A stretch of 64,000 nucleotides of DNA from a virus: positions 4,946 through 68,945 of IMG/VR virus record IMGVR_UViG_3300020579_000012. One strand, written 5' to 3'. Below, piece after piece: positions 18,084-56,136 of this stretch (position 1 is its first letter; each line of letters starts with the position of its first letter). The translations under genes and the position numbers were made by a program. The notes below the pieces were generated by a model. It worked only from the letters and a program-made list of their open reading frames with translations, was not told the origin of the DNA and made no database searches.

Positions 18084-18130
18084 AGTGTACACCATCAGTG
18101 TACACTTGTCAATGTAAAATCACTGTACAC
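18084..18130 (-). promoter_or_regulatory. sigma70-type promoter overlapped by three GTGTACAC-type palindromes
   Basis: Minus strand: GGTGTACAGTGATTTTACATTGACAAGTGTACACTGATGGTGTACACT. -35 TTGACA (18112-18107), 17-nt spacer, -10 TACACT (18089-18084); palindromes at 18085-18092, 18098-18105 and 18123-18130 (one mismatch). Confidence 0.65.
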
Positions 18131-18857: not shown

Positions 18858-18865
18858 AGCTTCCC

Positions 18866-34437: not shown

Positions 34438-34707
34438 ATGTCTCAGATCATCTACGTCCGGAGACCCGGCCTCGGCGACGTGACTTCATCGATCACGGAC
34501 GCTGCGACCGCGTCTATGGCTCCCGTGATCGAGCAGATGCTCGTGAATGACGTTCTACCGATGGTTGTTGTCGGTATGGTTGCGGGAGCCGCCGTCGCCG
34601 CGTTCATCGGCACATGGTTTTCGCACAAGGCGATGCGTTCTGCAGGAGTTATCAGGAAGAATCCTGTCGCGCGGACGTACGTCTCGCTCCGACGGAGGCG
34701 TGCGTGA
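34438..34707 (+). CDS. membrane protein (89 aa) with basic tail
   Basis: IYVRRPGLGD near the N-terminus; TM segment MVVVGMVAGAAVAAFIGTWF; ..IRKNPVARTYVSLRRRRA. Confidence 0.55.
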   Translation: MSQIIYVRRPGLGDVTSSITDAATASMAPVIEQMLVNDVLPMVVVGMVAGAAVAAFIGTWFSHKAMRSAGVIRKNPVARTYVSLRRRRA

Positions 34708-34730
34708 GCTGGCTGAATTTAAAATCAAGG

Positions 34731-38899: not shown

Positions 38900-38991
38900 A
38901 GCCGGGCCAGAACGCCAGCCCGTCCCGCGGTATTTTGTGGACGAAAGTCCCGGCCGATGCGGAAGTGGCGTGAGATCGAAAGGTGGAAGCC

Positions 38992-39786: not shown

Positions 39787-40728
39787 ATGAGTTGGGGTCA
39801 GGTACCGACATTCCTCCGCGACAAGGACACCGGCCAGATCTACATGAACCCAGCGAAGGACTGGGTTCAACCGTTCGAGCTGACGGTCTCGAAGCCGAAC
39901 CAGATCATCCACCTCGCAGCAGGAGAGAGTCGTGGGGTCTTTCCGCTCACGGCCCAGTACGACGGGCCGATCGAGGTTTTCTATGTCAAAGCGAACGTCT
40001 ATGCTCCGGCCGAGGACCCGACACAGCCGGGCGCGCTCCTTCAGACGTACGATATCGATTTCCTGCTGGAGCATCCTGGAAAGCGGATTCAGTTCTCGAA
40101 CAGGATCGTTCCGCTCCTGGCCCTATCCGGGAACGCTGCGCAGCCGTACGTCCTGCCGGAGACGATCTTTGTTCCGCCGGTCCAGTCGCTCAATCTGACA
40201 CTCGTAAACAACGATCTTGTGAACGCCGTCTTCGTTGAGTTTGTTCTTGGCGGGATCAAGTTCTATCCGAATCAGGCGCCCGCCGGTCAGATCAAGGACG
40301 AGGTTTGGAAGTACGTCGATCGGCGTGAGCGGACCTATTGCTACTTTCAGACGACTGACGAGCCGGTCGTTCTGACGGCGCTCCAGGAGACCATGTTCTT
40401 CATGACGATCCCGGACAACTCGGACTTTGAGTGCTTCAAGCTCTCGCAGCAGTCGACCGACGTCTTTCGCTGTTTGATTCGAGATGGTCAGAATGACCGG
40501 GCTCTAACCGGTGATCGGATCCACCGGGACCTGCTGTTCGGAGGTCACGCACAGATGCCACTAGGAGCACAGTTCCTTGGCTCCGGTGGGATCTGGCCCG
40601 CTCGGTGGGCGTCATCCTGGCTGATTCGACGATCGACGAAAGTCCAGCTCGACCTGTCGGACATCTCGGACGCTTCGAACACGATCAAGGTCGTCTTCGC
40701 GGGGAGAAAGATCTCGTATGTCAGCTAA
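39787..40728 (+). CDS. beta-rich capsid-like protein (313 aa), candidate large major capsid protein
   Basis: ..PYVLPETIFVPPVQSLNLTLVNN..VFVEFVLGGIKFY..TIKVVFAGRKISYVS: alternating-strand pattern throughout. Confidence 0.6.
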   Translation: MSWGQVPTFLRDKDTGQIYMNPAKDWVQPFELTVSKPNQIIHLAAGESRGVFPLTAQYDGPIEVFYVKANVYAPAEDPTQPGALLQTYDIDFLLEHPGKRIQFSNRIVPLLALSGNAAQPYVLPETIFVPPVQSLNLTLVNNDLVNAVFVEFVLGGIKFYPNQAPAGQIKDEVWKYVDRRERTYCYFQTTDEPVVLTALQETMFFMTIPDNSDFECFKLSQQSTDVFRCLIRDGQNDRALTGDRIHRDLLFGGHAQMPLGAQFLGSGGIWPARWASSWLIRRSTKVQLDLSDISDASNTIKVVFAGRKISYVS

Positions 40729-41455
40729 GAGGCCGCCGGGACGTCCTCCGGGACGCCCGCCGGGCCCCCCTCGCCCGCCGCGTGGCGGTGGCATGGGCGG
40801 TCCCGATCACGAGGAGTACCAATACGAGGGCTGGCGTGACGCCGGACAGGGCGAGCCGCGTCCGAACGACGTCGTCTTTGATCCTAACTGTCCGCCGCAG
40901 CCGGACCCGTGCGCAAAGCCGCGAGTTTGCTTCGTCAAGTTTCCGGCCTTCAATCAGCCACCTTGGTTCTCGAAACCGCTGATTAAAGTTCGCTCGTCGC
41001 TCGTGATTCCGGCGGGACAGATTGCGCTGATATTCGACCGTGAGATTCCTGATCGGCAGCGTGCAGTCTCGTCGTTTCTTGGGATCGACGTTGCACCGAT
41101 TGCGCCGCTACTTAACTCTCAGCTTGAGTTCTGGTTTCAGCTCGGCCAGAAGGGTATCGCTGCGCCATCCTCAAACGTCATCCCTGTCTGGGACGATCAG
41201 AATCCGACAAGCTACGGGACATCTCACGCGATCCAGTCTGGCCGAACGACCGTCTGGCCCGGTGTTGGAACACCTCTAAACTTTCAAGAAGTTGGCCTGC
41301 AGTTCGGTCTGCGTGGCCGCTGTCAGTTTCAAGGGCTTATCGAGAACAAGTCTGGCGTCGCGATTACGGTCCGCGGTGTCTTCGGCTACTACTACTACTG
41401 GGCGTCCGCAAAGGGCGGAGCGTCCGAGTGGGAGTCCGGCGACTTCGAGGCCTAG
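40718..41455 (+). CDS. beta-rich structural protein with Pro/Gly-rich N-terminus (245 aa)
   Basis: MSAKRPPGRPPGRPPGPPRPPRGGG..; shares GVGTPLNFQEVG and AITVRGVFGYYYY motifs with 38992-39654. Confidence 0.55.
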   Translation: MSAKRPPGRPPGRPPGPPRPPRGGGMGGPDHEEYQYEGWRDAGQGEPRPNDVVFDPNCPPQPDPCAKPRVCFVKFPAFNQPPWFSKPLIKVRSSLVIPAGQIALIFDREIPDRQRAVSSFLGIDVAPIAPLLNSQLEFWFQLGQKGIAAPSSNVIPVWDDQNPTSYGTSHAIQSGRTTVWPGVGTPLNFQEVGLQFGLRGRCQFQGLIENKSGVAITVRGVFGYYYYWASAKGGASEWESGDFEA

Positions 41456-41476: not shown

Positions 41477-41884
41477 ATGCCCGCGCCACTAAATCCGAAC
41501 CTCTGGCCCTCAGTCCTGCACGACGAGAACGGGATCCCGATCGGCCCACTGAACCCGCTGCCTGTTACGGGCGGTGGCGGTGGCGGCGGTGCTGCGAACC
41601 GTCCGGCCTTCGTGACCGGTCAGGTCAATGTCCCGGTTCCGGGAACCGCCGCGCAGCTTCCGGCGCAGGCGATTCCGGACGGTTTCACGATCTTCATCCG
41701 CGCGAAGGTCACGAACACCGGGAACATCTACATCGGGAACTCTGCACCGAACGCCCAGAATCATCTTGTCGCTTTCATCCTGGAGCCAGGCGCCTTCCTC
41801 GAGTACGGCATCACGAACGGCGATCTCGTCTTTCTGGACGCGGACGACGCGAACGACGGCGTCATGTGGACCTCCGAGGTATAG
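41477..41884 (+). CDS. small beta-sandwich structural protein (135 aa)
   Basis: poly-Gly linker followed by ..FTIFIRAKVTNTGNIYIGNS.. Confidence 0.55.
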   Translation: MPAPLNPNLWPSVLHDENGIPIGPLNPLPVTGGGGGGGAANRPAFVTGQVNVPVPGTAAQLPAQAIPDGFTIFIRAKVTNTGNIYIGNSAPNAQNHLVAFILEPGAFLEYGITNGDLVFLDADDANDGVMWTSEV

Positions 41885-42791: not shown

Positions 42792-43460
42792 ATGGCGAGC
42801 GGCGGCGGCCCCGGCGGGGGCGGAGGCCCCGGAGGGTCTGGAGGCGGTATCAAGCACTATTGCGAAGTCCGATTGGACGCGACCATGGCCCTGCTGGGCG
42901 CCACCCGGTACATGGTACCCTGGACCCATGTCGTCTACGACGAGAGCGGGATCTACTCGATCGTCGTCGATCCGTCTCCTCCGGCAAACTGGAATCCGGA
43001 CGGCCGGTACGGTGCGTTCGATATCCCGGAGGACGGATCATGGACCCTCTGGTGTCAGGCCTATCAGCAGACATCGGGAAGCACGGAACACGGTCTGAAC
43101 TTTCTGAGAGATATTCCTGCGGTTCAGCACTCTCCGACAGCACTTCCCGGAGACCACGCGCGGGGAGAATGGCTCCTACTCCAGAACCCGGTATCTCCGG
43201 ACGCTACGAACCAGCCGATGACGTCCATCTACAAGGGTGCGCTGTTTAAGGGTGATCGAATCTACTGCGAGGTGCAATCCGCGGACCCTTTCTACCTTCT
43301 GTACAACGATCCCGCAATACCTCCTCCGGGCTGGGGTGGCACCGTTCAGGACTGGATCAATGCCCAGGCGATCCGGCCGAAGGAGCAGTACGTTTACCCG
43401 AGGATGGTGGCGTACATGGATGGCCCGTTGCCGCCACTCTTGGATAAGATTCTGAGCTGA
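42792..43460 (+). CDS. Gly-rich N-terminus plus C1q/TNF-like-looking beta domain (222 aa)
   Basis: MASGGGPGGGGGPGGSGGGIKH..; ..GAFDIPEDGSWTLWCQAY..IYCEVQS. Confidence 0.55.
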   Translation: MASGGGPGGGGGPGGSGGGIKHYCEVRLDATMALLGATRYMVPWTHVVYDESGIYSIVVDPSPPANWNPDGRYGAFDIPEDGSWTLWCQAYQQTSGSTEHGLNFLRDIPAVQHSPTALPGDHARGEWLLLQNPVSPDATNQPMTSIYKGALFKGDRIYCEVQSADPFYLLYNDPAIPPPGWGGTVQDWINAQAIRPKEQYVYPRMVAYMDGPLPPLLDKILS

Positions 43461-43470: not shown

Positions 43471-43860
43471 ATGGCTAAAGGCGGAGGTCCTGGTGGCGGC
43501 TCCGGTTCGAAACAAGCCGGAAACGTAATCGACGTAACTGGAACCAGCACCGATATCAACACCACTGTATTCGATGTTGTTCAGGCTCGAGGGCTGGTCG
43601 GCATTGGAGCAATCAAGAATACGGGCGCCAATAGCATTACGATCATCGAGACCGTCACCGACAAGTTCGGCGTCACGACGCCTGTGCCGACGGACATCCC
43701 GGCCGGAGACCAGTACATCCTGAATCCGCAGTCCAGTTTCAACGATGAGATCACGAACTCCTGGCCCCCATATACGGAGTACAAACTGGAGGTTCAGAGC
43801 ACGACCGCCGGTCAGCCGAGCACCTTCGAGTTGCACTACATCGATGTTTCACCGTCCTGA
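43471..43860 (+). CDS. small structural protein with Gly-rich N-terminus (129 aa)
   Basis: MAKGGGPGGGSGSKQ.. Confidence 0.55.
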   Translation: MAKGGGPGGGSGSKQAGNVIDVTGTSTDINTTVFDVVQARGLVGIGAIKNTGANSITIIETVTDKFGVTTPVPTDIPAGDQYILNPQSSFNDEITNSWPPYTEYKLEVQSTTAGQPSTFELHYIDVSPS

Positions 43861-44296: not shown

Positions 44297-45010
44297 ATGG
44301 GAAACTTCACCAGTCCCGGCGGAACGCTCGTCTGCGAGATCTGGGCTGACGGCGGAATCGGACAGACATGGGGGTCAGCATCCGGAAAGGGCGGCGGGGG
44401 TGGCAGCTACGCGAGGGTGGAGCTTGTGACAGCTCCCGGAGACATACTGCAATTCCTCGACACTGGTGCTGGTGGCATAACTAAACTCACCGTAGCAGCA
44501 GTAATCAAGGCGTCAGCAGGGAATGGAGGTGCTGGTGCTGGGGGTGGAGGAGTTGCTACCGTCGGCGACGTGCTTTATAACGGCGGAAGTGGAGCCAATG
44601 CCTCGGATGTCAACGGTTTCAATGATGACGGAGGCGGCGGAGGAGGACCTGCTCTAAGAGATACCAATGGCGTTAGCACGCCTACTACCACAAGTATTCT
44701 TGGCGGTGTAACGTCGCCTGGGAATTTTGGTGGAGAAGGCGGTGGGAGATTTTCTAGCGCTCCTCAGCCTCCTGAAAGTGGGAGCTCTCCAGGAGGCGGC
44801 GGAGGCGGTGCAGGGAATGGAAATCCTAGCCCTGGCGGTAGTAGTGGTGGCTATGCGGTTGCTGTCTGGACTTTGGCAAACTGGAATGGGAATCCGCAGG
44901 TTGGTGGGACTCTTCCTGTTTCAGGCGCAAGTCCATTATATACCGAAGGGGCGCCTCAACCGGCTCCTCCGGCCTTGGATCCGACGCAGCGAGCGGCATT
45001 TGTGATGTGA
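44297..45010 (+). CDS. glycine-rich domain protein (fibre-associated type)
   Basis: ..CEIWADGGIG..GKGGGGGSYARVEL.. and several further poly-Gly blocks. Confidence 0.6.
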   Translation: MGNFTSPGGTLVCEIWADGGIGQTWGSASGKGGGGGSYARVELVTAPGDILQFLDTGAGGITKLTVAAVIKASAGNGGAGAGGGGVATVGDVLYNGGSGANASDVNGFNDDGGGGGGPALRDTNGVSTPTTTSILGGVTSPGNFGGEGGGRFSSAPQPPESGSSPGGGGGGAGNGNPSPGGSSGGYAVAVWTLANWNGNPQVGGTLPVSGASPLYTEGAPQPAPPALDPTQRAAFVM

Positions 45011-45066: not shown

Positions 45067-45330
45067 GTGAACCTTCTATTGGCGGCGCTTTCAGCGACGA
45101 ACGTTGATCCACCGGCCGGAACGTTCAGTCAGGCGTCCTGGGCGATTATTGTCGTGCTCGGGGCTGCACTTATGGCGGTTAGTGGTTTTGCCGTCAAGTG
45201 GTTGACGAAGATGTATGACGATTTAAAGGCGTGCAATGCGGCTCGTGCAGCTCAGGAGGAGGACATTCTCGGGCTGCTGAAAGTGCTGAGGCTTCAGATG
45301 GAACAGTCTAGAGGAGGTAGACCACGATGA
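45067..45330 (+). CDS. membrane protein (87 aa), holin-like position
   Basis: TM segment WAIIVVLGAALMAVSGFAV followed by a charged helix. Confidence 0.5.
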   Translation: MNLLLAALSATNVDPPAGTFSQASWAIIVVLGAALMAVSGFAVKWLTKMYDDLKACNAARAAQEEDILGLLKVLRLQMEQSRGGRPR

Positions 45331-45662: not shown

Positions 45663-46235
45663 ATGGCGGACGAAGCGGCGGCAGCGACCTCGGCGACGGC
45701 GGTGAAGCCGGGCTGGCAGACGACGGAGTTCTGGCTTCATTTGATCGCCACATTAGCTGGTGCAGTAATGGCGAGCGGTCTTCCGAGTAACAGTAAGATC
45801 GTGCAGGTTGCGGGCATGGCGACCTCTTTGATCTCTGTGCTCGGTTATACGACGAGTCGCACGATGGTCAAGAATGCGGCGCAGGCTTTTTTGATCGGAA
45901 TCCTCCTGATGGGGGCTGGCTGCAAGACCATTGACGCAAAGACGCTGGCGGACTTTCAGACCGGCGAGGCACTAATCCTGAAGGACATGGCGAAGTACAT
46001 CGCCGCGGATGTTGCGGCTGGGAAAACCCCGACGATCACCCAGGCCGCCCTCGACGCGCATATGATAAAGATCAAGGCGGATGTTACGAGCGTCGATCCG
46101 ACGGAGGAGCAGGCGATCATGGCTCAGTTCCAAGCCTATATTGCTAGTGACTCGAAGATGTCCGCTGGAACGCTCCGGGCATGGAACGGAGAAGTCAGCG
46201 GACATTTGGCTCTATTCACGTCGGTTCATCGGTAG
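45663..46235 (+). CDS. membrane protein with holin-like N-terminus and an internal lipobox-like LMGAGC (190 aa)
   Basis: ..KPGWQTTEFWLHLIATLAGAVMASGL..VAGMATSLISVLGY..FLIGILLMGAGCKTID. Confidence 0.55.
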   Translation: MADEAAAATSATAVKPGWQTTEFWLHLIATLAGAVMASGLPSNSKIVQVAGMATSLISVLGYTTSRTMVKNAAQAFLIGILLMGAGCKTIDAKTLADFQTGEALILKDMAKYIAADVAAGKTPTITQAALDAHMIKIKADVTSVDPTEEQAIMAQFQAYIASDSKMSAGTLRAWNGEVSGHLALFTSVHR

Positions 46236-46261
46236 ACCCTGAAAGAGAAAGAGAGAGTCCT

Positions 46262-46669
46262 ATGGTAGACCAAATTCCTCCGACCCCTGTACCGGCTCCT
46301 ACCCCCGCACCCGCCGGGCTAGACTGGTCCGCGATTGGCTCATCGATCCTAGCCGATGCGAAGGCCGCCCTCGGTGCGGCGGCGACCGGTTTCCTTACCA
46401 CGCATCCGAACGCTCTGGCCTTTCTGGAGAATTCGAGTATCGAAGCGGCTAAGTCCCTCGTCCTGTACGCCATCACCTCTGACCCGGATGCGAAGGCAGA
46501 TCTGAAGCTTCAGGTTGACCTCTGGCGACAGGGGATCAAGGAAGAGGCGGAGTCCATCGTCAAGGACATTCTGGACGAAGCGCCTTCGGTGTTCATGACC
46601 ATTGTTGAGGACATCGGGCGGATCGCCATGGGCCTCGCGCCGGTCCTGTTGAAGGCCATTCCGATCTGA
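46262..46669 (+). CDS. hypothetical protein (135 aa)
   Basis: Trimmed to ATG 46262; Pro/Ala-rich N-terminus and hydrophobic C-terminus. Confidence 0.5.
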   Translation: MVDQIPPTPVPAPTPAPAGLDWSAIGSSILADAKAALGAAATGFLTTHPNALAFLENSSIEAAKSLVLYAITSDPDAKADLKLQVDLWRQGIKEEAESIVKDILDEAPSVFMTIVEDIGRIAMGLAPVLLKAIPI

Positions 46670-46685
46670 CGAAACGGAGAATCCG

Positions 46686-47828
46686 ATGCAAGTTTACGCG
46701 CCCCCCGGCCCAGGTCTTGGAAGCCAGGAGGTTTCTGCCTTTCAGCGCCTTTCGCCCAGGTCTAGGGCACTTGTTGCGGATGAGTTTCGGAGCCCGGAGT
46801 CGCACGAGGCGATCCGATGGGTCCTCCAGCAGCGAGATCCGGAGGCCGCGTTAGCCGATGCGATTTCCGAGAATGTTCATCAGGCGTCCAGAGACGCTGC
46901 GTCTGGTGTTGGGCTTGGTGACGGACTTGGACGGAGCTTCTTTAAGAGACTTGCGAGGTTGCACCGAAAGATCTTCAACGTCTTCAAGAAGGTCGATCCG
47001 GGGCTTCATGCGCTGACAAAGAAGAAGCACAGTGGCTCAGCGGCGGTTCCGTACGCAGCGGCGACCGCCTCGGCACCAGCGCCGACGCCGCCTCCTGTCG
47101 ATTCTGGATCTTCGGCGGCCCCTGGGATGTACAACATGCCTGCACCGATTGTGCCTACTCCTTCAGCTTCACAGCCGTCTCCATCTTCGTCGATGTACAA
47201 TATGCCATCTCCGCAGGTGCCGGTCAACTATGTCCAGGAGCAGCCGCCGACGGATCCATCTGCTTCCGCTCCTCCTACGTTCGATCCGTCGACGATGACA
47301 CAGGTTGCTGCTCCCGCAACTCCTGTAGCTCCTGTTCCAGCAGCAGCATCGCCTTCTACACCCGTTGCTGCTTCGTCGTATACGACCGGCACGGACGAGA
47401 CGGCCGGGCTCCCGTCGGCAACAGGTTACACGCTGACCGTTGAGGGCCAAACGATCACGAACTATCCGGTTGACATCACGCAGATCTCGTCACTCGTCCA
47501 GTCTGGCACGCAGCCCGGAGACCGCTTCGAGATTCTAGCAGATGGAGTTGGGACCGGGCTCCGGGTCCGGACGACCACAGGTTTCATTTCGATCCCAGAT
47601 TCTATGCGTGCGCAGGTTCAGGCAATGCCGAAGGGTCAAGTTCTCGCTCTCTTAACGCAGGCCGCGGCGAATGTTGCGGCGTCTGGAGTCCCGATGCCGA
47701 CACCGCTTCCGGCGACGCCGCCACCGAGCGCAGCACCGGCCTCGGACGGTGGTGGAATAGTCTGGCTACTCGGCGCTGGCGGTGTTGTGGCAGCTCTAGC
47801 GGTCGCTGGTGGAGGGAAGCGTCGGTGA
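46686..47828 (+). CDS. S/P/A-rich protein with C-terminal GG-TM-basic anchor (380 aa)
   Basis: Ends ..ASDGGGIVWLLGAGGVVAALAVAGGGKRR. Confidence 0.6.
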   Translation: MQVYAPPGPGLGSQEVSAFQRLSPRSRALVADEFRSPESHEAIRWVLQQRDPEAALADAISENVHQASRDAASGVGLGDGLGRSFFKRLARLHRKIFNVFKKVDPGLHALTKKKHSGSAAVPYAAATASAPAPTPPPVDSGSSAAPGMYNMPAPIVPTPSASQPSPSSSMYNMPSPQVPVNYVQEQPPTDPSASAPPTFDPSTMTQVAAPATPVAPVPAAASPSTPVAASSYTTGTDETAGLPSATGYTLTVEGQTITNYPVDITQISSLVQSGTQPGDRFEILADGVGTGLRVRTTTGFISIPDSMRAQVQAMPKGQVLALLTQAAANVAASGVPMPTPLPATPPPSAAPASDGGGIVWLLGAGGVVAALAVAGGGKRR

Positions 47829-49162
47829 GCGTCCGCTACATCAAACGTCCGACGGTTACGTACATCCGGCGACCCGGCCTTGGAGGATTCGCTCCTCCGT
47901 CAGATCCGACCGCCGGATTGCCGGGTGGCGGTCCGATCTCATATCCAGGAGGCCCTGTAAATCAAACTTATACAGGACCTCAGAATCAATTCCGTTATCT
48001 TGCCGACGGAACTGCCCAGCAGCTTATTTTTCCTAAGTATTTCAGTGGAACAAATGCTGGATCGTGGCAAAACGTAACCGACATAAGTAGCGTAGCTTTC
48101 GAGGGTATGAAGTGGTACGTCGATGGGATCTACTTCATTTATAGTGCAACAGACCCTCAATCTGGAGCGAGGAATCCTGGATGGCATCTAAGCCTTCCAG
48201 GTGCGCAGGAGATCTACTCGCGCGCCAATGCTATGAGATCTTCAGGGAATATAATCTATGCGCCGCTCCCTCCCGGCGTAGACCAGACGACCATTGTTAG
48301 TCCGAGCAACAACACATGGAGTACTCCTCCGGATTCTATCAATGTTGATTACATAACTGCGAAGCAGGCGGCGAGTCAGAACGTCCGCAGCAACACCTAT
48401 CGGATCTACGATCCGTTCACTTGGCAGGGGTATCAGGCTCTTCCTGATGGTTTCATGGAGCCGGTTGACGGAGGTGTCTGGGTCCTCGCTTCCGACAACG
48501 TGCTCGATGCTGTTCAGCAGAAGTTCGGAATTTTTGCGGATCCATGGTACTGGCTGGTTGCGACGCACCCGACGACCGGTCAGGAGCGGCTCTTTCTCGT
48601 GAATCGTGGACCGAATATCAGTAACATCTTCACGCGACTCGGAAAGACAGGTCCCATGGTGATCTCGATCCTCGGGACTGTGCTTGCACCGTTTACGCTT
48701 GGCATCTCGGCCGCCGTCGCCGCGGTCGCTGACACGGCCATCGCGATCGAACAGAAGAAGGCAGCAGCAGCAGCCGCAGCCGCGGCCAATCAGCACCAAG
48801 CCGACGTTCTTCAGCAGCAGGTTAACGACCAGACGGTCCAGGTCACTGCGCAGGCCGACTCCGTCTATCAGGCGAACCAGACAGCATTCCTGGCGGCCGG
48901 GTACACGCAGGCCATCTGGAATGGGCTCACGCTCGATCAGAAAACCGCCCTTCTCCAGCAGGCCGCCGCCGGACAGCTCCAGCCAACCCCAGCCGCGGTT
49001 GCCGTGGCTCAGCAGACCCAGCAGACCGTCGCCAATGCCATCCAGAGCGCTACAGTAAACGCGGCGCTAGGTACGCAACAGCCGACGTCATCCGGCGGCG
49101 TCTGGCTCCTGTTGCTCGGCGGTGGAGCTGCACTGGCGTTTGCCGGGGGTGGAAAGAAGTAG
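47825..49162 (+). CDS. protein with Q/A-rich coiled coil and C-terminal GG-TM-basic anchor (445 aa)
   Basis: GTGA overlap at the start; N-terminal YIRRPGLGG; ends ..TSSGGVWLLLLGGGAALAFAGGGKK. Confidence 0.6.
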   Translation: MSVRYIKRPTVTYIRRPGLGGFAPPSDPTAGLPGGGPISYPGGPVNQTYTGPQNQFRYLADGTAQQLIFPKYFSGTNAGSWQNVTDISSVAFEGMKWYVDGIYFIYSATDPQSGARNPGWHLSLPGAQEIYSRANAMRSSGNIIYAPLPPGVDQTTIVSPSNNTWSTPPDSINVDYITAKQAASQNVRSNTYRIYDPFTWQGYQALPDGFMEPVDGGVWVLASDNVLDAVQQKFGIFADPWYWLVATHPTTGQERLFLVNRGPNISNIFTRLGKTGPMVISILGTVLAPFTLGISAAVAAVADTAIAIEQKKAAAAAAAAANQHQADVLQQQVNDQTVQVTAQADSVYQANQTAFLAAGYTQAIWNGLTLDQKTALLQQAAAGQLQPTPAAVAVAQQTQQTVANAIQSATVNAALGTQQPTSSGGVWLLLLGGGAALAFAGGGKK

Positions 49163-49164
49163 CC

Positions 49165-49767
49165 ATGGACCCAGACGTCACCTACGCCCGGGCCCTCGCG
49201 ACCGCCTTTGCGGCGGACATAGACAATCCGTCAATCGCCGGGGTGATCCAACGTGGTGGCCTTACGCAGGACCAGTTTACGTCGATTGTTTATCGGGACA
49301 TTCAGCGGGGCCTTACCGGAGCACCTGGACCAGCTCTTTTTCCGTCTGTTCGGGCTTTTGCACGTCAGGTTGTTGGTATTACAGCGATAAAGCAGGCGAG
49401 GAGCTACGGACTCTCGCAGGCCTCTTCTGACATCGGCGGGGCCGCCGGTTTAGTCGGCGCTATTGCTGGAGCTGTTGGTGCGATTTGGAGTACGAAGATC
49501 AACACCGACTCCCAGAAGAATCTTGCAAAGATCCAGGCAAACGAGGCGCAGATCACTCAGAACTCCCAGACACTTGCTGCGCAGTCTGCATTGATCCAGA
49601 ATGCGACAGCGAACGGCGTACTCCTCTCTCCGGCGGGAGGTGTGACTCCTGTGACCGCGATAGGTCCGTCGGGGACTCTGACCGCCGTTAGTGGTCTTCC
49701 GGTTCTGGCGATCGGAACGGCGCTCGCAGCGATGGTGTTCGGTGGCTACTTCTTCGCAAAAGGATGA
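49165..49767 (+). CDS. tail-anchored membrane protein (200 aa)
   Basis: Ends ..GLPVLAIGTALAAMVFGGYFFAKG. Confidence 0.55.
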   Translation: MDPDVTYARALATAFAADIDNPSIAGVIQRGGLTQDQFTSIVYRDIQRGLTGAPGPALFPSVRAFARQVVGITAIKQARSYGLSQASSDIGGAAGLVGAIAGAVGAIWSTKINTDSQKNLAKIQANEAQITQNSQTLAAQSALIQNATANGVLLSPAGGVTPVTAIGPSGTLTAVSGLPVLAIGTALAAMVFGGYFFAKG

Positions 49768-49771
49768 TTCT

Positions 49772-50629
49772 ATGAGAAACCTGCAGCACGGCGTTAGAGT
49801 CCGCGTCGTCCAGACGCCGTTGGTTATGTACGTCAACGAGGCGACCTGGATCCCCAGCGGCATGCATGGCTACGGCGACGAGGGCTGGCGGAGCGGCATG
49901 TCCGCCTACCCGGTCGTCGATGACGACTCCGCCGCGATCGAGCCGCTCGTCTCGAAGCTCATGGTGAATGGGTTACCGGAGGCACAGGCAAGGGCAATCG
50001 TTCAGGCCGCCGTAGGGCGTGTCCGGTCGGTTGGAGGCGGTATGGGCGCCTCGTTGATGGTTGAGAAGGCTACCGCTCTCGACGCGGTCTTCCAGGGTCT
50101 CTTAGTCAGGGGTATCCCTGCCGATCGAGCCCGTATTCTCGTCAACCGGGCTGCCATGCGTCGTGCCGGTCTGTCCGGTATGGGCCAGAGCGCGACCGTC
50201 GACGCTGCAGTCCTGCAGAAGGCGAGCGATACGCAGACCCAGCACCAAGCTTTAATTGCCCAGTACGCCGCGGCGACAGACCCCACTTCGCAACTGGATA
50301 TCCGGAACCAGATTGATGCTCTGTATTCCGACTGGACGACCTACGCGGTCGGCGTCGAGAATGGTCAGCCTCCGTACCAGTGGAATCTGGCCGACCCGAC
50401 CGCGGCAATCCTTTCGTCGATCCGAAATGACATCGCGAATACGCTGTCCCTGATCGATGCCGGGAAGGCTCAGCTCGCGCTCCAAAAGAACATCGTGACC
50501 TCCTGGTCGCAGTCTTCGCCGAATATGACCATGCCGACGATATCACCAGGCGATGTCCCCTGGTACGTCTGGGCGGGTGGCGGTGTGGTTGGCCTGACAG
50601 CACTCAGCAAGTTATTCGGGAAGAAGTGA
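49772..50629 (+). CDS. tail-anchored membrane protein (285 aa)
   Basis: Trimmed to ATG 49772; ends ..GDVPWYVWAGGGVVGLTALSKLFGKK. Confidence 0.55.
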   Translation: MRNLQHGVRVRVVQTPLVMYVNEATWIPSGMHGYGDEGWRSGMSAYPVVDDDSAAIEPLVSKLMVNGLPEAQARAIVQAAVGRVRSVGGGMGASLMVEKATALDAVFQGLLVRGIPADRARILVNRAAMRRAGLSGMGQSATVDAAVLQKASDTQTQHQALIAQYAAATDPTSQLDIRNQIDALYSDWTTYAVGVENGQPPYQWNLADPTAAILSSIRNDIANTLSLIDAGKAQLALQKNIVTSWSQSSPNMTMPTISPGDVPWYVWAGGGVVGLTALSKLFGKK

Positions 50630-50642
50630 CATTACGTTTCCT

Positions 50643-50664
50643 GCACAGTAGAATAGTTCAGCCG
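50643..50664 (+). promoter_or_regulatory. dyad motif copy on the + strand (right half degenerate)
   Basis: GCACAGTAGAATAGTTCAGCCG; upstream of the late glycosyltransferase gene. Confidence 0.35.
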
Positions 50665-50706
50665 CGGCATGGTGCTTCGGCGGGGTGAAGAAGAAGGAGA
50701 GGGGTT

Positions 50707-52035
50707 ATGCCTCAGAAACCGCAGCTCATCGACATGATCCGGACGGTCCCGGAAGTCGCCGTGCGACTTTGGGCGGGCGGAGTCCCGCGCCCGTCCGACG
50801 ATGGCGTCCGGATCGAGTTCGAGGGCCACATGCCGGTATTTCATGCGGACATCTACCAGCAGGCCGACAAAGTCGCTCGGATCCTGGCGATCCGCTGGGG
50901 CAGTCGCAAGCTCCGGTCGATGACGGACCTTTTGGATCTCCGGCACGCCGCTGAGGATGTTTTCATCGAAAATCTCTTCCATCGAGAGGACACACCGAAA
51001 GTCCTCTTTGTTCCGGCTGGTGAGACCGCCTCCGGCTTCTACCGTGCGATGATCCCGGCAGATCTGATGAATGAGGGCGGCCGGATCATCTCCCATTGGA
51101 CGAGTCGCCCGGATGTTGCGAAGGCACTTCGCTACGACGTCCTTTGGATCCAGCTCATCACGGCGCCGATTCTGATCGAGATCGCCCGTCAGGCGCAGGC
51201 GAGCGGCGTCCGGATCGTCTACGACATCGACGACAACCTGTCTGCGATTCCAGACGAGAATCAAGCAAAGAACGTCTACGGGACTCCGGAAAAGCAGGCG
51301 GAGATCCGGGCGATGATCGATTTGGCGGATCTCGTCACAGTCTCGACGGCACCGCTCGGGCGGGTCATTGCCGCTCGGCACCCTGGCAAACGGGTCGTCG
51401 TCCTTCCGAATATGGTGACGGCGAACGTTGCTCCGCGTCGGCATACACCGAATCCTGGCTTTGTTCGGATACTCTGGGCCGGAACGCCGACACATAAGCG
51501 GGACCTCGCGATCGTTGCACCCGCACTCCGGGAGCTGCTCCGGGAGCGGAACGGAAATGTTCGCTTTACGCTCTTCGGCGAGCGCGTCCCGGAGGCCCTG
51601 GCGGACTGCCAACAGTGGATCGACCTTAAGAAGCCGGTCGACTTTCAGGACTACCACGACGAGCTTGCCGAGCTCGCCGCGGACTTTGGGATCGTCCCGC
51701 TCGAGGCGAATGCCTTTAACGAATCGAAGTCCGGCTTGAAGGGTCTCGAGTACGCCTCCGCGGGCTACCCGATGCTCTGTTCTCCGGCCGCTGAGTACCC
51801 GGACATGGTCCGGGACGGATTCCCGTCCGCACTCGTTGCCGATGGCGACTGGCTTCCCGCGCTCCGGTACATGGTCGATCTGACGGCCAAGGAACGCGAT
51901 ATCATGGGGAAGGCTTGCATTGACTGGGCCACCCGGAACCGCTGCATGGGGACGAACCATGCAGACCAGTGGGCCGACGTTGTCCATGATCTTCTCGGGA
52001 AGCCGACGAAGGCGGAACTGAAGCTGGTGAGTTGA
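50707..52035 (+). CDS. glycosyltransferase (GT1/GT4-like) inside the late module
   Basis: ..IDLADLVTVSTAPLG..VVVLPNMV..RILWAGTPTHKRDL..NESKSGLKGLEYASAGYPMLCSP. Confidence 0.8.
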   Translation: MPQKPQLIDMIRTVPEVAVRLWAGGVPRPSDDGVRIEFEGHMPVFHADIYQQADKVARILAIRWGSRKLRSMTDLLDLRHAAEDVFIENLFHREDTPKVLFVPAGETASGFYRAMIPADLMNEGGRIISHWTSRPDVAKALRYDVLWIQLITAPILIEIARQAQASGVRIVYDIDDNLSAIPDENQAKNVYGTPEKQAEIRAMIDLADLVTVSTAPLGRVIAARHPGKRVVVLPNMVTANVAPRRHTPNPGFVRILWAGTPTHKRDLAIVAPALRELLRERNGNVRFTLFGERVPEALADCQQWIDLKKPVDFQDYHDELAELAADFGIVPLEANAFNESKSGLKGLEYASAGYPMLCSPAAEYPDMVRDGFPSALVADGDWLPALRYMVDLTAKERDIMGKACIDWATRNRCMGTNHADQWADVVHDLLGKPTKAELKLVS

Positions 52036-52301
52036 TGGCGCGACTTGATGCAGCGATCGATGTGGCGACGGAGTACGCCTACCACCTCTACAAGGTGGAC
52101 GGCGTTCCACAGGCTCAGGCCATCACGATCGGTGCGGCGGCGGTCGTCCGGGCAGCTCGTGCGAATCCGTTAAAGTTCGTCACGCCGAGAGCACAGCCAC
52201 AGCCGGAGTCCGCACTTGGTTGGTCCGGACAGGCACTCTCACTGGTTGGTTCATCTCTCTCGGTAATCGGTTTGATTAAAACACTTTTCGGTGGAGGATA
52301 G
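52032..52301 (+). CDS. tail-anchored small protein (89 aa)
   Basis: Ends ..GQALSLVGSSLSVIGLIKTLFGGG. Confidence 0.5.
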   Translation: MMARLDAAIDVATEYAYHLYKVDGVPQAQAITIGAAAVVRAARANPLKFVTPRAQPQPESALGWSGQALSLVGSSLSVIGLIKTLFGGG

Positions 52302-52305: not shown

Positions 52306-52716
52306 ATGTCGAAGGGAATCCGACGCTCCGGTCCAGGAAAATGTAACACGATCCTAGACTCGGTCATCTACCAGATGATCGGAGAGGGCATGGGCGACGA
52401 GTCTTGCGGGGATGTTTCCGAGGTTGGATTCGCTGCCGAGAAGATCTCTCTCGGTAGGGATGCTATCAAGGAGGCTGAGAGAATTGCCGCGGAAGACGAC
52501 GGTCTGACCGACGAGGAAGTCGATATGATAAAAGACTCCGTCGGGGCGATCATGGTCGAGAACGACCAAGGATTCGTCACTGTCGACTACTACGAAAATG
52601 AGAAGGAATTCGAGAAGGACTGGGAGGAAATCCAGGACGACGCTTCCCCTGAAGACGAGGAAGAAGAGGAAGAGGAATCTGAAGAGGAAGACGCCGAGAC
52701 CGAGGAGGCTGAATAG
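52306..52716 (+). CDS. highly acidic protein with poly-Glu tail (136 aa)
   Basis: GGAGGA SD; ends ..DDASPEDEEEEEEESEEEDAETEEAE. Confidence 0.55.
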   Translation: MSKGIRRSGPGKCNTILDSVIYQMIGEGMGDESCGDVSEVGFAAEKISLGRDAIKEAERIAAEDDGLTDEEVDMIKDSVGAIMVENDQGFVTVDYYENEKEFEKDWEEIQDDASPEDEEEEEEESEEEDAETEEAE

Positions 52717-52718: not shown

Positions 52719-53168
52719 ATGTCGCTGACAACCGAACAGTACAGGACCTTGGCAGACGTCCAGCGCAACCTCGTCCGACGTGGGGTGAGTCCGGTAGCCG
52801 CAGGGCAGGCGATCCTCCGTGCCGTCGACCGGGTGGCGCCGGGTGGCATGGGCTCGTGTGGTCCGGACTGCTGCTGCTGCCGTGGCAGTGGCGTCGGACA
52901 GACTACTCTTGCGCCCCTCTCGACGACGACCGGCGGGCTGGCGCCAACGACGGCCAGTCCCGTAGCCGGAGCCCCTCCGATCATCTCGACGATCGACGCG
53001 GCAGGGAATAATCCGTCCGTTGCGGCAATGCGGGACCTCGTCGGGAAGTGGTCTTGGGTGATTCCGGTTGGCGGTCTATTGATGTCCGCGAAGTCGAAGT
53101 TCACGGACTGGCGGGCCTCGAAGACGGATCCGGCGTATGCTGCTTCGAAGAGTCTGAGGAGCCGGTGA
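52719..53168 (+). CDS. hypothetical protein (149 aa)
   Basis: ..GSCGPDCCCCRGSG.. followed by a T/A/P-rich linker. Confidence 0.5.
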   Translation: MSLTTEQYRTLADVQRNLVRRGVSPVAAGQAILRAVDRVAPGGMGSCGPDCCCCRGSGVGQTTLAPLSTTTGGLAPTTASPVAGAPPIISTIDAAGNNPSVAAMRDLVGKWSWVIPVGGLLMSAKSKFTDWRASKTDPAYAASKSLRSR

Positions 53169-53395
53169 AGCTGCTGAAAGCCTTCAGGTTTCTTCATAAG
53201 AAGAAACCGTGTTTTCGATGCGGCGGGAACGCGACAGTCGGGTATATGTCGATCGACTACTGCGTGATCTGCCGTGAAGTCGTGATGAGAATGATGCCGA
53301 TCGTCGGGTTTGGCGGGATGTTCGGGTTTCCGGGGGCGACCGGATACTTGGAGTTCCCGAATTTGGAGAAGATCCAGGAGAAGAAGGAGAACTGA
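53165..53395 (+). CDS. small zinc-ribbon/hydrophobic protein (76 aa; start uncertain)
   Basis: GTG overlapping the upstream stop; CFRCGG..CVICRE. Confidence 0.4.
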   Translation: MKLLKAFRFLHKKKPCFRCGGNATVGYMSIDYCVICREVVMRMMPIVGFGGMFGFPGATGYLEFPNLEKIQEKKEN

Positions 53396-53396
53396 C

Positions 53397-53711
53397 ATGG
53401 GAGACGCGCCGTACATCATCATCAAGAACCGTCCCGGGTCCGGGGCCTTTAAGCGGTCGATCAGAACCCCTCGTTTCTGGCAGCACAACGAGACCGGGAA
53501 CGTGGTCGAGATCGTCCGAGTTCAGGAGGTCGACGGGAGCTGGCTCAGGTACATCTTCATCGATCCGACTGTTCCCGGCGTGCAGCTTTCCATGCCGTTC
53601 AAGACCCGGGAGAATCCGTACCAGCCACCCGGCCGATCGACGCCGCTGATGGAGCCTGGTTTTGAGGACCAGTACCACGTTTACAAGGACCAGCAGAGCA
53701 CGCGGGTCTAG
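53397..53711 (+). CDS. hypothetical protein (104 aa)
   Basis: AAGGAG 8 nt upstream of ATG 53397. Confidence 0.5.
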   Translation: MGDAPYIIIKNRPGSGAFKRSIRTPRFWQHNETGNVVEIVRVQEVDGSWLRYIFIDPTVPGVQLSMPFKTRENPYQPPGRSTPLMEPGFEDQYHVYKDQQSTRV

Positions 53712-53713
53712 TT

Positions 53714-54223
53714 ATGGATGAACTCAATAAACCACAAAAGGTCCGGCCGATTGTATTTCCGGACATCCTGTCTCCCGAGGAGCTCGACCGGGAGATCCGT
53801 CGCGTCTGGAAGATCTGTATCGCCGCGTCTGTCTCGGTTCCGCTCCTGGCGTGCGTCGTCGTGGCACTCCTGTTCTTCGGCGTCACGGACCTAAAGACCG
53901 TCGGACTGATCGCCTACCCGATAACGGCGATCGTTCTGATGACGTTCGGGCTCGCCTTCGTGATCCCGGCGACACTGACCAGCATCCGCCGCGTTTCGGC
54001 TACGGTCCGGATGGCCTATACAGGGCTACAGACGAACCAGCAGACGACGGAGTCGATAAAGGCCTTTCTCGAGGAGGCTCGGCCGATCGTCGATGTCATG
54101 AAGAATCAGATCCAGGACGGTTTCCTTGAGAAAATCGAGGGACACTTGAAGACGATCGCCGAGCGCGTCAAGCGCGACACGACGCCGTTGCCGACAGGTC
54201 GCCGACCCTCGATCGAGGCCTAA
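53714..54223 (+). CDS. membrane protein (169 aa)
   Basis: Two TM segments (ICIAASVSVPLLACVVVALLFFGV; LIAYPITAIVLMTFGLAFVIPA). Confidence 0.55.
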   Translation: MDELNKPQKVRPIVFPDILSPEELDREIRRVWKICIAASVSVPLLACVVVALLFFGVTDLKTVGLIAYPITAIVLMTFGLAFVIPATLTSIRRVSATVRMAYTGLQTNQQTTESIKAFLEEARPIVDVMKNQIQDGFLEKIEGHLKTIAERVKRDTTPLPTGRRPSIEA

Positions 54224-54232
54224 CGGAAAAAT

Positions 54233-54667
54233 ATGGCAGGCGGCGGAGGCAGCGGGACGATTTACCTGAGAGGCTCTACCTATCAATGCTGCGGCAGCAT
54301 ATCCCAAAATAAAGACGTGGTGACGATCCGGAAGGGCCAGCCAGTTGCCGTTCACTCGAGCGGAGTCGGAGTCGTCCTGGCCGGTGCCGCTCTCAACGGG
54401 ATGTACGCTGTTGGACTAGCGAAGGAAGACATTGCGGTAGGCGCGAGCGGACCGATCGCAGACTTCGGCGACTTCCAGATGTCCGACTGGACACCCGTCG
54501 TCGGTTCGCCGTCCCTGGCGGCGAAGGCAACGTACTTCCTAAGTGACGTGGTAGGCCAGCTCTCGACAGTTTCTCCGTCATCCCCTGGAGACGTCAGTCA
54601 GATTGTTCTGCGTGAGATAGCTCCGGACACTGCGTCGCTACGAATAGAATCTCCGATTTTGATCTGA
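54233..54667 (+). CDS. small beta-rich structural protein, paralog of 54676-55152
   Basis: MAGGGGSG.. N-terminus; ends ..LRIESPILI. Confidence 0.55.
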   Translation: MAGGGGSGTIYLRGSTYQCCGSISQNKDVVTIRKGQPVAVHSSGVGVVLAGAALNGMYAVGLAKEDIAVGASGPIADFGDFQMSDWTPVVGSPSLAAKATYFLSDVVGQLSTVSPSSPGDVSQIVLREIAPDTASLRIESPILI

Positions 54668-54675
54668 GGTGATCC

Positions 54676-55152
54676 TTGGCACTCAGAAAACCGCTCGTCT
54701 TCAACGGCGGCATCCAGCAGCTCCAGAGTGGAGACACCCTGGATGCCGCACGGTCCGATTCATCCGGTCTGATCCAGACGAACGACAACGTCGGCGCAAT
54801 GATCGCCGGACAGGTCGTATACAACGACGCGAACGACGGCGTCAAGAGCGCGAAGGCTGACGCCAGCGCGACGAAGGACGTCGTCGGTCTGATGCTCGAC
54901 ACTCCGGCGGCGGCCGGAACCGGCTTCGTCGCTATGAGCGGACCGGTCACGTTGACGACCGCGCAATGGGATGCGGTCTTCGGGACGTCCGGAGGACTGA
55001 CAAAGGGAACTCGCTACTACCTGTCGGCAACATCCGCCGGTCAGGGTCAGGCTGGTGCCCCAACCACCGTGGGACAGTATGTCGTCGAACTCGGTATCGC
55101 CATTTCGACGACCGAGCTGATGCTTGCGATCAGGAGCCCGATCCTCCTTTGA
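54676..55152 (+). CDS. small beta-rich structural protein, paralog of 54233-54667
   Basis: Ends ..LMLAIRSPILL; shares the G..V..G.A.S/T..L.I.SPIL pattern. Confidence 0.55.
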   Translation: MALRKPLVFNGGIQQLQSGDTLDAARSDSSGLIQTNDNVGAMIAGQVVYNDANDGVKSAKADASATKDVVGLMLDTPAAAGTGFVAMSGPVTLTTAQWDAVFGTSGGLTKGTRYYLSATSAGQGQAGAPTTVGQYVVELGIAISTTELMLAIRSPILL

Positions 55153-55370
55153 GCGACAAGAAGCCTCTTGTCCTGGGGACCGATCCGTCGAGCGGTGCGG
55201 TTCAGATGCAGCAGATTCAGCCGTGCGATCAGGTTAACCCGGCCTCGCTCCCGTTCGATCGGGAGACGAATTTGCGTAGGCTCTTTCGTGTCCTGATTCG
55301 AGATCTGATGAGCATTGGATTCCCTGTGTCTCAGGAATTGATCGACGAAGCCTCTAAGCAAGGATACTGA
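55149..55370 (+). CDS. hypothetical protein (73 aa; TTG start)
   Basis: TTGA overlap with the upstream stop. Confidence 0.4.
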   Translation: MSDKKPLVLGTDPSSGAVQMQQIQPCDQVNPASLPFDRETNLRRLFRVLIRDLMSIGFPVSQELIDEASKQGY

Positions 55371-55371
55371 C

Positions 55372-56136
55372 ATGGCAAACTTCACAGCGATCGTACGAGG
55401 GATAGCGCAGCGCGTCCTCGCGATCACATCGCCGACCCCGGACGGAACGGAGACACCGAACGGAGTCCGTACTGGGAGATTCAACGAACTATTCTCGCTG
55501 AATCTCTGGGCAAAACAGCACGGCCTCGCGGACGAGGAGTCGTCCTTTGTGATGTCCGGAACGCTCGGCACCGGAGTCGCAACGATCGCTGCGCTCACGG
55601 GGCTTGTCGATACATCTCCTTTTATCATTGCGAAGAATATTGCTGATCCGTCAACCGGGATCCGGTCCTATCTCGACCTCTTGAAGCTCATCTGCACGGT
55701 GGCCGGGACAGCAGGGACGGCGCTTCGATACGGGGTCAAAGTCGGACCGAGTCGACAAGACCCGACCGGAATGGACGCTGCATTCAACCCGACTCTGGCG
55801 GCACCGACCGGCGTTCCACAAAACGTCCAGGCGTCCAGCCAGAGGCAGTCGATCCTGCGCGTCTATGCCGGGGCGCTCGTTGCACCGGCCGCTCAGGGCG
55901 GTACGCGCCAGCTTGGGGGAGGTCTCCTGAAGAGCGCAATCCCCGTCGCCAACGACCAATACATCATCAACTTCGGCGGAATCGATCCGGCCGCGCCTGC
56001 AACCCAGGTCGATAGGAACGACGCGCATCCTTCGGTGGTAATCCCTCCCGGCTACTCCGCGTTCATACACATTTGGCTCCCCTCGCAGTCTGCGGCCTCG
56101 AGCTACGAGATTCAACTCCATCATCACGAAAGATAG
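55372..56136 (+). CDS. structural protein (254 aa), fold unknown
   Basis: ORF track; last large late ORF. Confidence 0.6.
   Translation: MANFTAIVRGIAQRVLAITSPTPDGTETPNGVRTGRFNELFSLNLWAKQHGLADEESSFVMSGTLGTGVATIAALTGLVDTSPFIIAKNIADPSTGIRSYLDLLKLICTVAGTAGTALRYGVKVGPSRQDPTGMDAAFNPTLAAPTGVPQNVQASSQRQSILRVYAGALVAPAAQGGTRQLGGGLLKSAIPVANDQYIINFGGIDPAAPATQVDRNDAHPSVVIPPGYSAFIHIWLPSQSAASSYEIQLHHHER

Follow-up and report, generated by a model that had tools for sequence, protein, structure and literature searches.

C-terminal membrane anchors conserved on late proteins of a 69-kb virus with a probable double jelly-roll capsid protein

The late block of the virus genome IMGVR_UViG_3300020579_000012 encodes a group of proteins that end in short hydrophobic helices with basic termini, and these are, on balance, probably C-terminally anchored virus membrane proteins of the virion membrane. 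The window, the stretch of 64,000 nucleotides analyzed here (positions 4,946 to 68,945 of the IMG/VR record), is most of the ~68.8-kb (about 69-kb) genome of an uncharacterized virus and corresponds to positions ~4816-68815 of a contig of 68,831 bp (ENA ERZ27253773). The + strand block at 29288-56538 represents its late block and contains the tail proteins as well as a candidate double jelly-roll (DJR) capsid protein. An earlier note, made without database searches, had listed recurrent termini in this block and suggested anchoring in a virion membrane; the quoted termini are all present at the positions it gave, and the anchoring is supported indirectly, by the late block shared with the DJR capsid gene and by the tail-anchor architecture. 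On this reading, the tails would be a variant of known C-terminal anchors of virion-membrane proteins.

The proteins are labelled A to G and are all encoded on the + strand. Family A (380 residues, 46686-47828) begins with the motif VYAPPGPGLG (46692-46721), continues with a linker rich in Pro, Thr and Ala and a beta-rich C-domain, and ends in the tail DGGGIVWLLGAGGVVAALAVAGGGKRR (47745-47828), with neither a signal peptide nor a match to a CTERM sorting-domain hidden Markov model (HMM). Family B (445 residues, 47825-49162) carries the N-terminal motif YIRRPGLG (47861-47884), a beta-rich N-domain, a Gln/Ala-rich helical region, an internal hydrophobic segment that is conserved and hairpin-like (residues 275-305, 48647-48739), and a tail, SSGGVWLLLLGGGAALAFAGGGKK (49088-49162). 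Family C (285 residues, 49772-50629) ends in DVPWYVWAGGGVVGLTALSKLFGKK (50552-50629), with PWYVW invariant in its orthologues; its start is called at 49772, with an upstream GTG at 49691 likewise open. Family D (550 residues, 32781-34433) consists of a probable N-terminal transglutaminase-fold domain, a Pro/Thr/Ala-rich linker and a tail of the form VVPWYLNP, transmembrane segment (…GGGGYY…) and HKNRPGGSGTRRRRRYA (34305-34433). Families E (200 residues, 49165-49767) and F (89 residues, 52032-52301), previously described as plain tail anchors, are confirmed to end in C-terminal anchors, ..SGLPVLAIGTALAAMVFGGYFFAKG (49690-49767) and ..LGWSGQALSLVGSSLSVIGLIKTLFGGG (52215-52301), respectively. G, a membrane protein of 89 residues (34438-34707), shows the motif YVRRPGLGD (34453-34476), a central transmembrane segment and the basic end ..IRKNPVARTYVSLRRRRA with a charge of +9. 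A further tail-like protein of 149 residues (52719-53168, + strand), absent from the earlier list, contains ..KWSWVIPVGGLLMSAKSK followed by a basic end of 22 residues (53046-53168). An independent gene caller applied to near-identical contigs, which are 68.4-69.1 kb long and come from other sequencing runs, returned identical open reading frames (ORFs) of 380, 445, 200, 285, 442 and 86-88 residues, and the GC content at third codon positions backs the reading frames.

The anchors are concentrated in the late block, where 8 of the 35 genes end in one; of the 64 other genes of the window, 2 do (Fisher p=0.003). Seven related IMG/VR contigs carry orthologues; these contigs are 22-73 kb long, with four at 67-73 kb, and the orthologues all keep their tails. 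Among 5.8 billion proteins, family B forms 18 homologue clusters, and members with 35-44% identity keep the Ser/Gly linker, ~15-20 hydrophobic or small residues and one to three terminal Lys or Arg residues, as in ..PSGSGGLILAVGLGFLVFLGTRK. The Gly-Gly described earlier is not a fixed motif: GG itself occurs in 10 of 18 sequences of family B or of a fused A-B form (SG in 16 of 18), the others carrying SSG, QSG, SNIG or SNN, and the "GG" corresponds to a Ser/Gly linker that varies in sequence. Tails (identity 0.46-0.74) and protein bodies (0.37-0.70) are conserved to a similar degree, indicating that an architecture is conserved and not a strict signature.

The second tail type shows the same pattern of conserved layout and drifting letters. 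The PWY-type tail reported as common to 49772-50629 and 32781-34433 is present, and among close orthologues of C and D, two families unrelated to each other, 12 of 12 have P-W-Y unchanged. In the 101 homologue clusters of family D, a C-terminal transmembrane segment is found in 97, at least three Lys/Arg residues after it in 84, RRR in 80 and a Trp at the N-terminal edge of the segment in 79. PWY was scored by script in 30 of 97 members of the family at large (more by eye), with [ST]PW.W, PFY, [ATE]WY, SPY and others as alternatives. The ending RRNP…RRRRAA is seen in some homologues of family D as well as in the adjoining protein G.

Relatives in which A and B form one protein with one tail (L008 15862-16947; P0016-P0018) point to the tail as a portable module, since the two separate proteins of this genome each carry one. 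The fused proteins are ordered as the A N-domain, the B hydrophobic hairpin and helical region, the A C-domain and the tail. As judged from these sequences, the history is either a fission that kept the tail on both products or a fusion in which the tails merged; in the window (46686-49162) it involves a doubled anchor module. As the tails of A and B are only weakly similar in DNA (score 25 versus 16.4±2.7 for shuffles, z only ~3), a recent gene conversion between them is rejected.

A tail anchor has been defined as one C-terminal transmembrane segment that is preceded by more than 30 residues and followed by no more than 15 (PMC5525287), and families A, C, E and F have this layout. The segment is followed by 3 residues in A, 6 in C, 2 in E and 7 in F; the tail of B likewise has 2. 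C-tail-anchored proteins are known to lack N-terminal signals (PMC6389858), and the best hydrophobicity of 10 residues within residues 2-35, a crude measure and not SignalP, is 0.16-1.59 for A to G versus 2.9-3.6 for three classic signal genes of the window (2582-2812, with the lipobox-like MKKLVLLLLLGGC; 17151-17933; 15472-15846). By the same test, signal-peptide-like N-termini are found in none of the 101 family D members and in none of the 18 members of B and the fused form. In all anchors the C-terminal flank is net-positive (+1 to +9) and the N-terminal flank neutral or acidic.

The capsid candidate places these anchors in context. The 313-residue protein at 39787-40728 (+ strand) is the most conserved late protein; its ~100 homologue clusters, none of them annotated, show 42-88% identity and come from contigs of up to 75 kb. 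Other jelly-roll candidates neighbor it at 38983-39654, 40718-41455 and 41477-41884. Its AlphaFold2 (AF2) model, based on an alignment of 35 sequences, has a predicted local distance difference test score (pLDDT) of 85.7 and a predicted template modelling score (pTM) of 0.83 and features two beta-sandwiches with a helix between them. Foldseek matches include GH172/DUF2961, PHM, P3 of PR772 (probability 1.00), the major capsid protein of Sulfolobus turreted icosahedral virus (STIV; 0.99) and that of an iridovirus, and, in BFVD, giant-virus and asfarvirus-like major capsid proteins. The recognized DJR set includes cellular enzymes, with DUF2961 nearest to the major capsid proteins of prokaryotic viruses (PMC8812541); as the match set equals this recognized set, the modelled protein is read as a probable DJR major capsid protein. 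Profile searches of the 313-residue protein and of families A, B and D against PDB sequences gave no match. More surprising than the tails is the clade itself: viruses of 65-75 kb with a DJR capsid fold and no recognizable packaging ATPase.

In characterized prokaryotic DJR viruses, membrane proteins encoded by the phage sit in an internal membrane (PMC6356626). Assembly of PRD1 and PM2 takes place on patches of host membrane loaded with viral proteins: the patch is pinched off and the capsid assembles on the vesicle, transmembrane proteins templating the capsid, as the PM2 proteins P3 and P6 do for the capsomers (PMC6356626). The membrane proteins of PRD1 also bring about the formation of a tube, and in PM2 the membrane undergoes fusion with the outer membrane (PMC6356626). 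A virion membrane is therefore likely for the present virus as well, given the DJR capsid candidate in the same late block, this precedent in the lineage and the density of membrane proteins there.

A route into the virion can be proposed on this basis. Without a signal peptide, the large N-terminal domains would stay on the cytoplasmic side, while the short Gly/Ala-rich helix would insert into the host cytoplasmic membrane, fixed and oriented by the terminal Lys/Arg residues. By analogy with PRD1 and PM2, the protein-loaded membrane patch would become the internal membrane of the virion, and the N-terminal domains would then face the capsid shell or the vertices. In such an arrangement the Ser/Gly-rich stretch may serve as a flexible linker and PWY as an interfacial aromatic belt at the membrane boundary, and helices of small residues would pack tightly where the membrane is crowded and curved. 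The RRPGLG peptide shared by N-termini of the group probably docks onto a common partner. The long poly-Arg ends of D and of the 89-residue G, which recur together with an RRNP motif in the neighboring proteins of 1027 and 369 residues, probably bind DNA or acidic capsid surfaces.

Several observations weigh against this assignment. The positive-inside rule predicts cytoplasmic C-termini, which conflicts with a simple N-in anchoring of A, C and D; the conflict is greatest for the tails of D (+7) and G (+9). D and G, with 17 and 27 residues after the transmembrane segment, exceed the tail-anchor limit, and B has a second hydrophobic segment: family B may be bitopic (N-terminus in, first transmembrane segment, helical loop out, second segment, KK in) rather than tail-anchored. 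The hydrophobic cores of the anchors are short and glycine-rich, and AF2 confidence is low there; the model of family B has a pLDDT of 64.5 and no Foldseek fold match (best E=0.75), and its N-domain fold is without known relative. The capsid assignment has its own difficulties. Template-modelling scores (TM-scores) of the 313-residue protein are about 0.4-0.5, the best PDB matches are GH172 glycosidases at ~0.4, and the fold is also cellular; modest scores and cellular DJR enzymes make the assignment probable, not proven. An FtsK/HerA-type packaging ATPase was not found in the window or in the 4.8 kb of the genome outside it, both of which were covered by the family scans; Walker A motifs in the window occur only in the D5 helicase and the XPD-like helicase, and neither a terminase nor a portal was detected in the genome. 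Described prokaryotic DJR viruses are 7-18 kb in size, mostly with a packaging ATPase, and the present genome is ~4-10 times larger; the Odin group and FLiP likewise have no packaging ATPase (PMC5894146). Relatives carry conflicting labels in metagenome-assembled genomes (MAGs), with P0052/P0183 in a Thermoplasmata MAG versus P0059/P0172/L010 in a Thermoanaerobaculia MAG. Finally, the location in the virion, the lipid membrane and the topology are inferred and not observed directly.

Alternatively, the proteins could stay unpackaged and have their role in the host membrane alone, for example in lysis, in superinfection exclusion or, like P10 of PRD1, in the remodelling of membranes. PRD1 does use a non-structural membrane protein in assembly (PMC6356626), and small holin-like transmembrane proteins lie in the same block at 45067-45330 and 53714-54223 (the latter with a weak Phage_holin_3_6 match, E=0.006). 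Such a role appears fairly unlikely for proteins as large as A, B, C and D (285-550 residues), which show strong conservation and keep their synteny with the capsid gene throughout the clade, and for D and G, which are placed between late proteins of 686-720 and 1027 residues upstream of the capsid gene. Poly-Arg tails and Pro/Thr-rich linkers are also unusual in lysis proteins.

A second alternative grants the termini more than an anchoring function and is suggested by motifs at the other end of the proteins. The near-N-terminal motifs described earlier are present and lie at the extreme N-terminus in orthologues, as [MV]R[YF]VRRPGLG in B, MRVYA.PG.GLG in A and Y[VI]RRPG[LM]GD in G. A twin-arginine translocation (Tat) signal is rejected for RRPGLG, as no hydrophobic region follows the motif. 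That this motif is kept at the extreme N-terminus of three otherwise unrelated membrane proteins, and that the tail modules are portable, either shared by a fused A-B protein or carried by two proteins, would fit an address or processing code of the virus itself, in which the C-terminal modules and RRPGLG are read by viral machinery, with D as a maturation protease trimming linkers or N-termini or with the modules as signals for incorporation into the virion membrane.

Two further features can be counted for such a code, namely the invariant catalytic-type triad of family D and the over-representation of the RNP motif (R-N-P / R-x-N-P; about 12-13 observed versus 2.2 expected). RNP is located in 34614-37697, 37708-38817, 34438-34707 and 52032-52301, recurs at regular places in the 1027-residue protein (RRNPKT, QRNPLT, VRSNPLT, IRRNPLL) and in basic tails, and could represent a repeat boundary, a cleavage site or a binding motif. 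The code is nonetheless unlikely, since plain anchoring explains the tails without any processing. The motifs are unlike known viral protease sites, judged against the consensus only with no scan run; adenain-type (M/I/L)XGG-X sites were discarded on the same footing. In addition, the family D protein of the window falls below Pfam significance, and transglutaminase-fold domains in phage virions are more often cell-wall hydrolases. A broader form of the proposal, in which an undescribed clade of 65-75-kb prokaryotic viruses (DJR, no recognizable ATPase) possesses its own portable address modules for virion-membrane proteins, is judged fairly improbable. The modules it invokes are a Ser/Gly linker with a Gly-zipper transmembrane segment and KRR, PWY with a transmembrane segment and poly-Arg, and the N-terminal RRPGLG, which machinery of the virus or of the host would read. 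If true, the viruses would encode their own counterpart of bacterial C-terminal sorting, with which proteins are selectively incorporated and possibly matured by proteolysis.

In family D, C110, H145 and D160 are invariant in seven orthologues, in the context G-D-C-D-T … S-H-V-W … L-D, and the Cys-His-Asp pattern (G.C..F … H.W … D) occurs in 58 of 101 homologues. PF01841 is precomputed on two distant homologues (P0207 and P0220), which, together with the invariant residues, makes the family a probable membrane-anchored transglutaminase-fold protein. The protein of the window shows no Pfam match at E<=1 and no PDB profile match. By analogy, family D is plausibly a cell-wall or peptide hydrolase associated with the virion, comparable in function to P7 of PRD1 and to NlpC/P60 proteins in Bam35-like phages; genomes of the PRD1 and Bam35 type are listed with such NlpC/P60 proteins and with lytic enzymes (PMC5894146).

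The more speculative proposal of the earlier note, the hijack of a host C-terminal sorting pathway, would make the tails GlyGly- or PEP-CTERM-like signals cleaved by a rhombosortase, an exosortase or another intramembrane protease, possibly with attachment of a lipid. Their form invites this comparison: a Gly/Ser motif, a hydrophobic helix and basic residues stand at the extreme C-terminus of A, B and their homologues, and the suffix is common to unrelated proteins, with one type on A and B and another on C and D. Gly-rich transmembrane helices are also of the kind that rhomboids can cleave. The tail of B (..TSSGG|) resembles the cleavage context of VesB (..SASSGG|; PMC6219818).

The proposal is not borne out by the further properties of these systems and is very unlikely. 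More than 25 CTERM sorting-domain models of NCBIfam, including the GlyGly-CTERM model TIGR03501 (22 residues, cut-off 15.5 bits), gave no match at E<=10 to the whole proteins or to the tails alone, the outcome that the earlier note had itself named as refuting. Control tails run beside the viral tails A and D all scored above the curated cut-off, with 25.9 bits for the LPXTG signal of protein A (not family A) and 27.4, 38.5 and 45.5 bits for synthetic consensus GlyGly, PEP and PGF tails, so that the blank result is a true negative. The controls also cross-matched many other CTERM models, while viral tails A and D gave nothing in the same run; the viral tails are thus without even the generic similarity that links true sorting domains. 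[quoted passage not shown] Signal peptides are lacking here, and the segment 275-305 is an extra hydrophobic segment in B and the fused A-B proteins; family A has none. The Gly-Gly is not conserved among the sequences of B and the fused form, and the drift of PWY across family D contrasts with the invariant signature that precedes the transmembrane segment in exosortase and archaeosortase signals. A sortase, rhomboid, exosortase or any polytopic protein was not found in the genome. Tripartite form alone is insufficient where the HMM, signal-peptide and Gly-Gly tests fail, and the tails are best read as those of tail-anchored virion-membrane proteins.

An artefact, with Gly/Ala-rich ends as compositional noise or mis-called ORFs of a genome with a GC content of 55-64% and frequent Gly/Ala/Pro-rich stretches, deserves next to no credence, given the agreement of independent gene calls, the frame support from third codon positions, the enrichment of anchors in one gene block and tails conserved in position and architecture in homologues down to 36% identity, which refutes a chance origin of the tails.

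If the anchoring in a virion membrane holds, the tail proteins together make up the membrane proteome of a group of tailless, membrane-containing DNA viruses that is new and unusually large, with ~100 capsid-protein clusters in metagenomes, none of them characterized. The tail cassettes and the N-terminal motif would then be practical markers for virion-membrane proteins of such viruses and would offer testable handles on the selection of proteins into the internal membrane, which is poorly understood even for PRD1 and PM2. For annotation, a motif followed by a transmembrane segment and an Arg/Lys end is by itself not a sortase-type signal; signal peptide, HMM match and partner enzyme all need checking before the term is used.

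The remaining genome is organized in - strand blocks that encode a D5-type primase-helicase, an XPD-like helicase, a tyrosine integrase, a methyltransferase, an HNH nuclease, a GroES-like protein and three glycosyltransferases. The late block is essentially without Pfam or PHROGs matches, all tail proteins and most late genes having been scanned, and HK97-type capsid, terminase and tail families were not found in it, a lack of tailed-phage genes that fits the reading favored here. A DNA search against 50,697 phage records gave no match, and no tRNA genes were found. A genome collection yielded a single match, a 14-kb contig assigned by binning to Thermoanaerobaculia; a second relative sits in a Thermoplasmata bin. 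Related viral contigs thus sit in MAGs of two domains, where their genes are annotated as cellular hypothetical proteins, likely through binning contamination of public MAGs. The host is probably a bacterium, as weakly favored by Shine-Dalgarno motifs, a GroES/Cpn10-like gene (2844-3131, - strand; precomputed Pfam on a twin contig) and the lipobox-type lipoprotein at 2582-2812 (- strand), which belongs to the early block together with the signal-peptide protein at 17151-17933 (- strand).

Several other genes of the late block are of note. Two small membrane or hydrophobic proteins open the tail cluster (45663-46669, + strand), one of 190 residues with several hydrophobic segments and one of 135 residues with a hydrophobic C-terminus, both without family matches. 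A protein of 369 residues (37708-38817, + strand), also without family matches, combines a protamine-like Arg-rich N-terminal half (first ~150 residues; RRRR, RRNP) with hydrophobic segments in the second half; it has the RRNP/poly-Arg theme in common with the tails and is a possible DNA-membrane linker. A protein of 136 residues at 52306-52716 has a highly acidic C-terminus, …EEEEEEESEEEDAETEEAE, with the last residues ETEEAE kept in L008 and L002; it may serve the poly-Arg proteins as a counter-ion or chaperone. Three late proteins begin with another recurrent motif, MA[SKG]GGGPGGG(S)G; together with a protein of 237 residues made largely of Gly runs, they are encoded at 42792-43460, 43471-43860, 54233-54667 and 44297-45010.

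A GT4-type glycosyltransferase lies inside the tail cluster (50707-52035, + strand; Pfam Glyco_trans_1_4, E=2e-8) and is conserved in relatives; the others are encoded at 19459-21177, 18120-19040 and 8661-9314. Families A and D contain long Pro/Thr/Ser/Ala linkers typical of O-glycosylated regions, which, with these four genes, makes glycosylation of virion proteins or lipids possible. Downstream of the gene for the 149-residue protein, otherwise near-identical genomes differ by a cassette swap (window 53165-56136 versus L011 15335-19231), with proteins of 76/104/169/144/158/254 residues in the window versus 191/59/247/785 residues in SRR34148722 (L011); the cassette is likely a host-range or receptor-binding module. 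A tandem array at 63612-64000, reaching the end of the window near the end of the source contig, contains at least 26 copies of the 15-bp unit CAGGTCGGCACCGCG at 93% identity. It gives a spurious CAVPT-repeat ORF and may be a terminal or replication-related repeat.

Among known systems, the GlyGly-CTERM/rhombosortase pair (TIGR03501/TIGR03902; VesB of Vibrio cholerae) resembles the tails in its tripartite C-terminus and in the use of one suffix on unrelated proteins (PMC6219818, PMC3237569). It differs in its HMM signature, the signal peptide, the constancy of GG and the absence of an additional segment as found in B, and the rhombosortase system, which involves C-terminal cleavage and attachment of glycerophosphoethanolamine, is essentially proteobacterial; no rhombosortase is known to accompany the viral tails. 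The tails of C and D show the order of signature motif (PWY), transmembrane segment and Arg cluster known from PEP-CTERM/exosortase, PGF-CTERM/archaeosortase and MYXO-CTERM/myxosortase, in contrast to which they match no model, allow PWY to degenerate, lack a signal peptide and, in D, insert a spacer of 10 residues between the transmembrane segment and the Arg cluster. Bacterial C-tail-anchored proteins of the ElaB/YqjD type have a matching layout, with no signal, a large N-domain in the cytoplasm, a single Gly-rich C-terminal transmembrane segment and a short positive patch with an Arg-Arg end (PMC5525287, PMC6389858). The viral proteins show neither homology to them nor a DUF883 match and are larger, with Pro/Thr-rich linkers, longer poly-Arg ends in D and G and the extra segment in B.

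In viral proteins, juxtamembrane aromatic motifs are known for membrane activity (PMC8540712). PWYVW of family C, extended to PWYVWLG in L008, is identical to the core of the KWPWYVWL juxtamembrane domain of the coronavirus spike (PMC8540712), in which changes of the aromatic residues to Ala reduce fusion (PMC8540712, PMC4521866). HIV gp41 similarly contains, in its membrane-proximal external region (MPER), a Trp/Tyr-rich motif directly N-terminal to its transmembrane anchor. The tail proteins are unrelated to these fusion proteins and lack both a signal peptide and the heptad-repeat machinery for fusion. A homologous origin of PWYVW and the spike motif is rejected; it is a short convergent motif, and the likeness is one of position and chemistry.

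A further comparison is with PRD1 (Tectiviridae) and PM2 (Corticoviridae). Neither sequences nor profiles show similarity to these phages, the genome of ~69 kb compares to 10-18 kb, and no FtsK-type ATPase was found. The anchors of the present virus are consistently C-terminal with Lys/Arg ends, and the shared modules S/G-WLL-GxGG-KRR and PWY-TM-polyArg (TM, transmembrane segment) are not described for PRD1 or PM2. The proteins of PRD1 and PM2 are inserted into the host cytoplasmic membrane that turns into the internal membrane of the virion, some with lytic or DNA-delivery functions (PMC6356626, PMC5894146), a path proposed here for the tail proteins as well. What connects the systems is the arrangement of late-block membrane proteins beside a DJR capsid gene, as for P7, P11, P16, P18 and P32 of PRD1 and P3-P10 of PM2.

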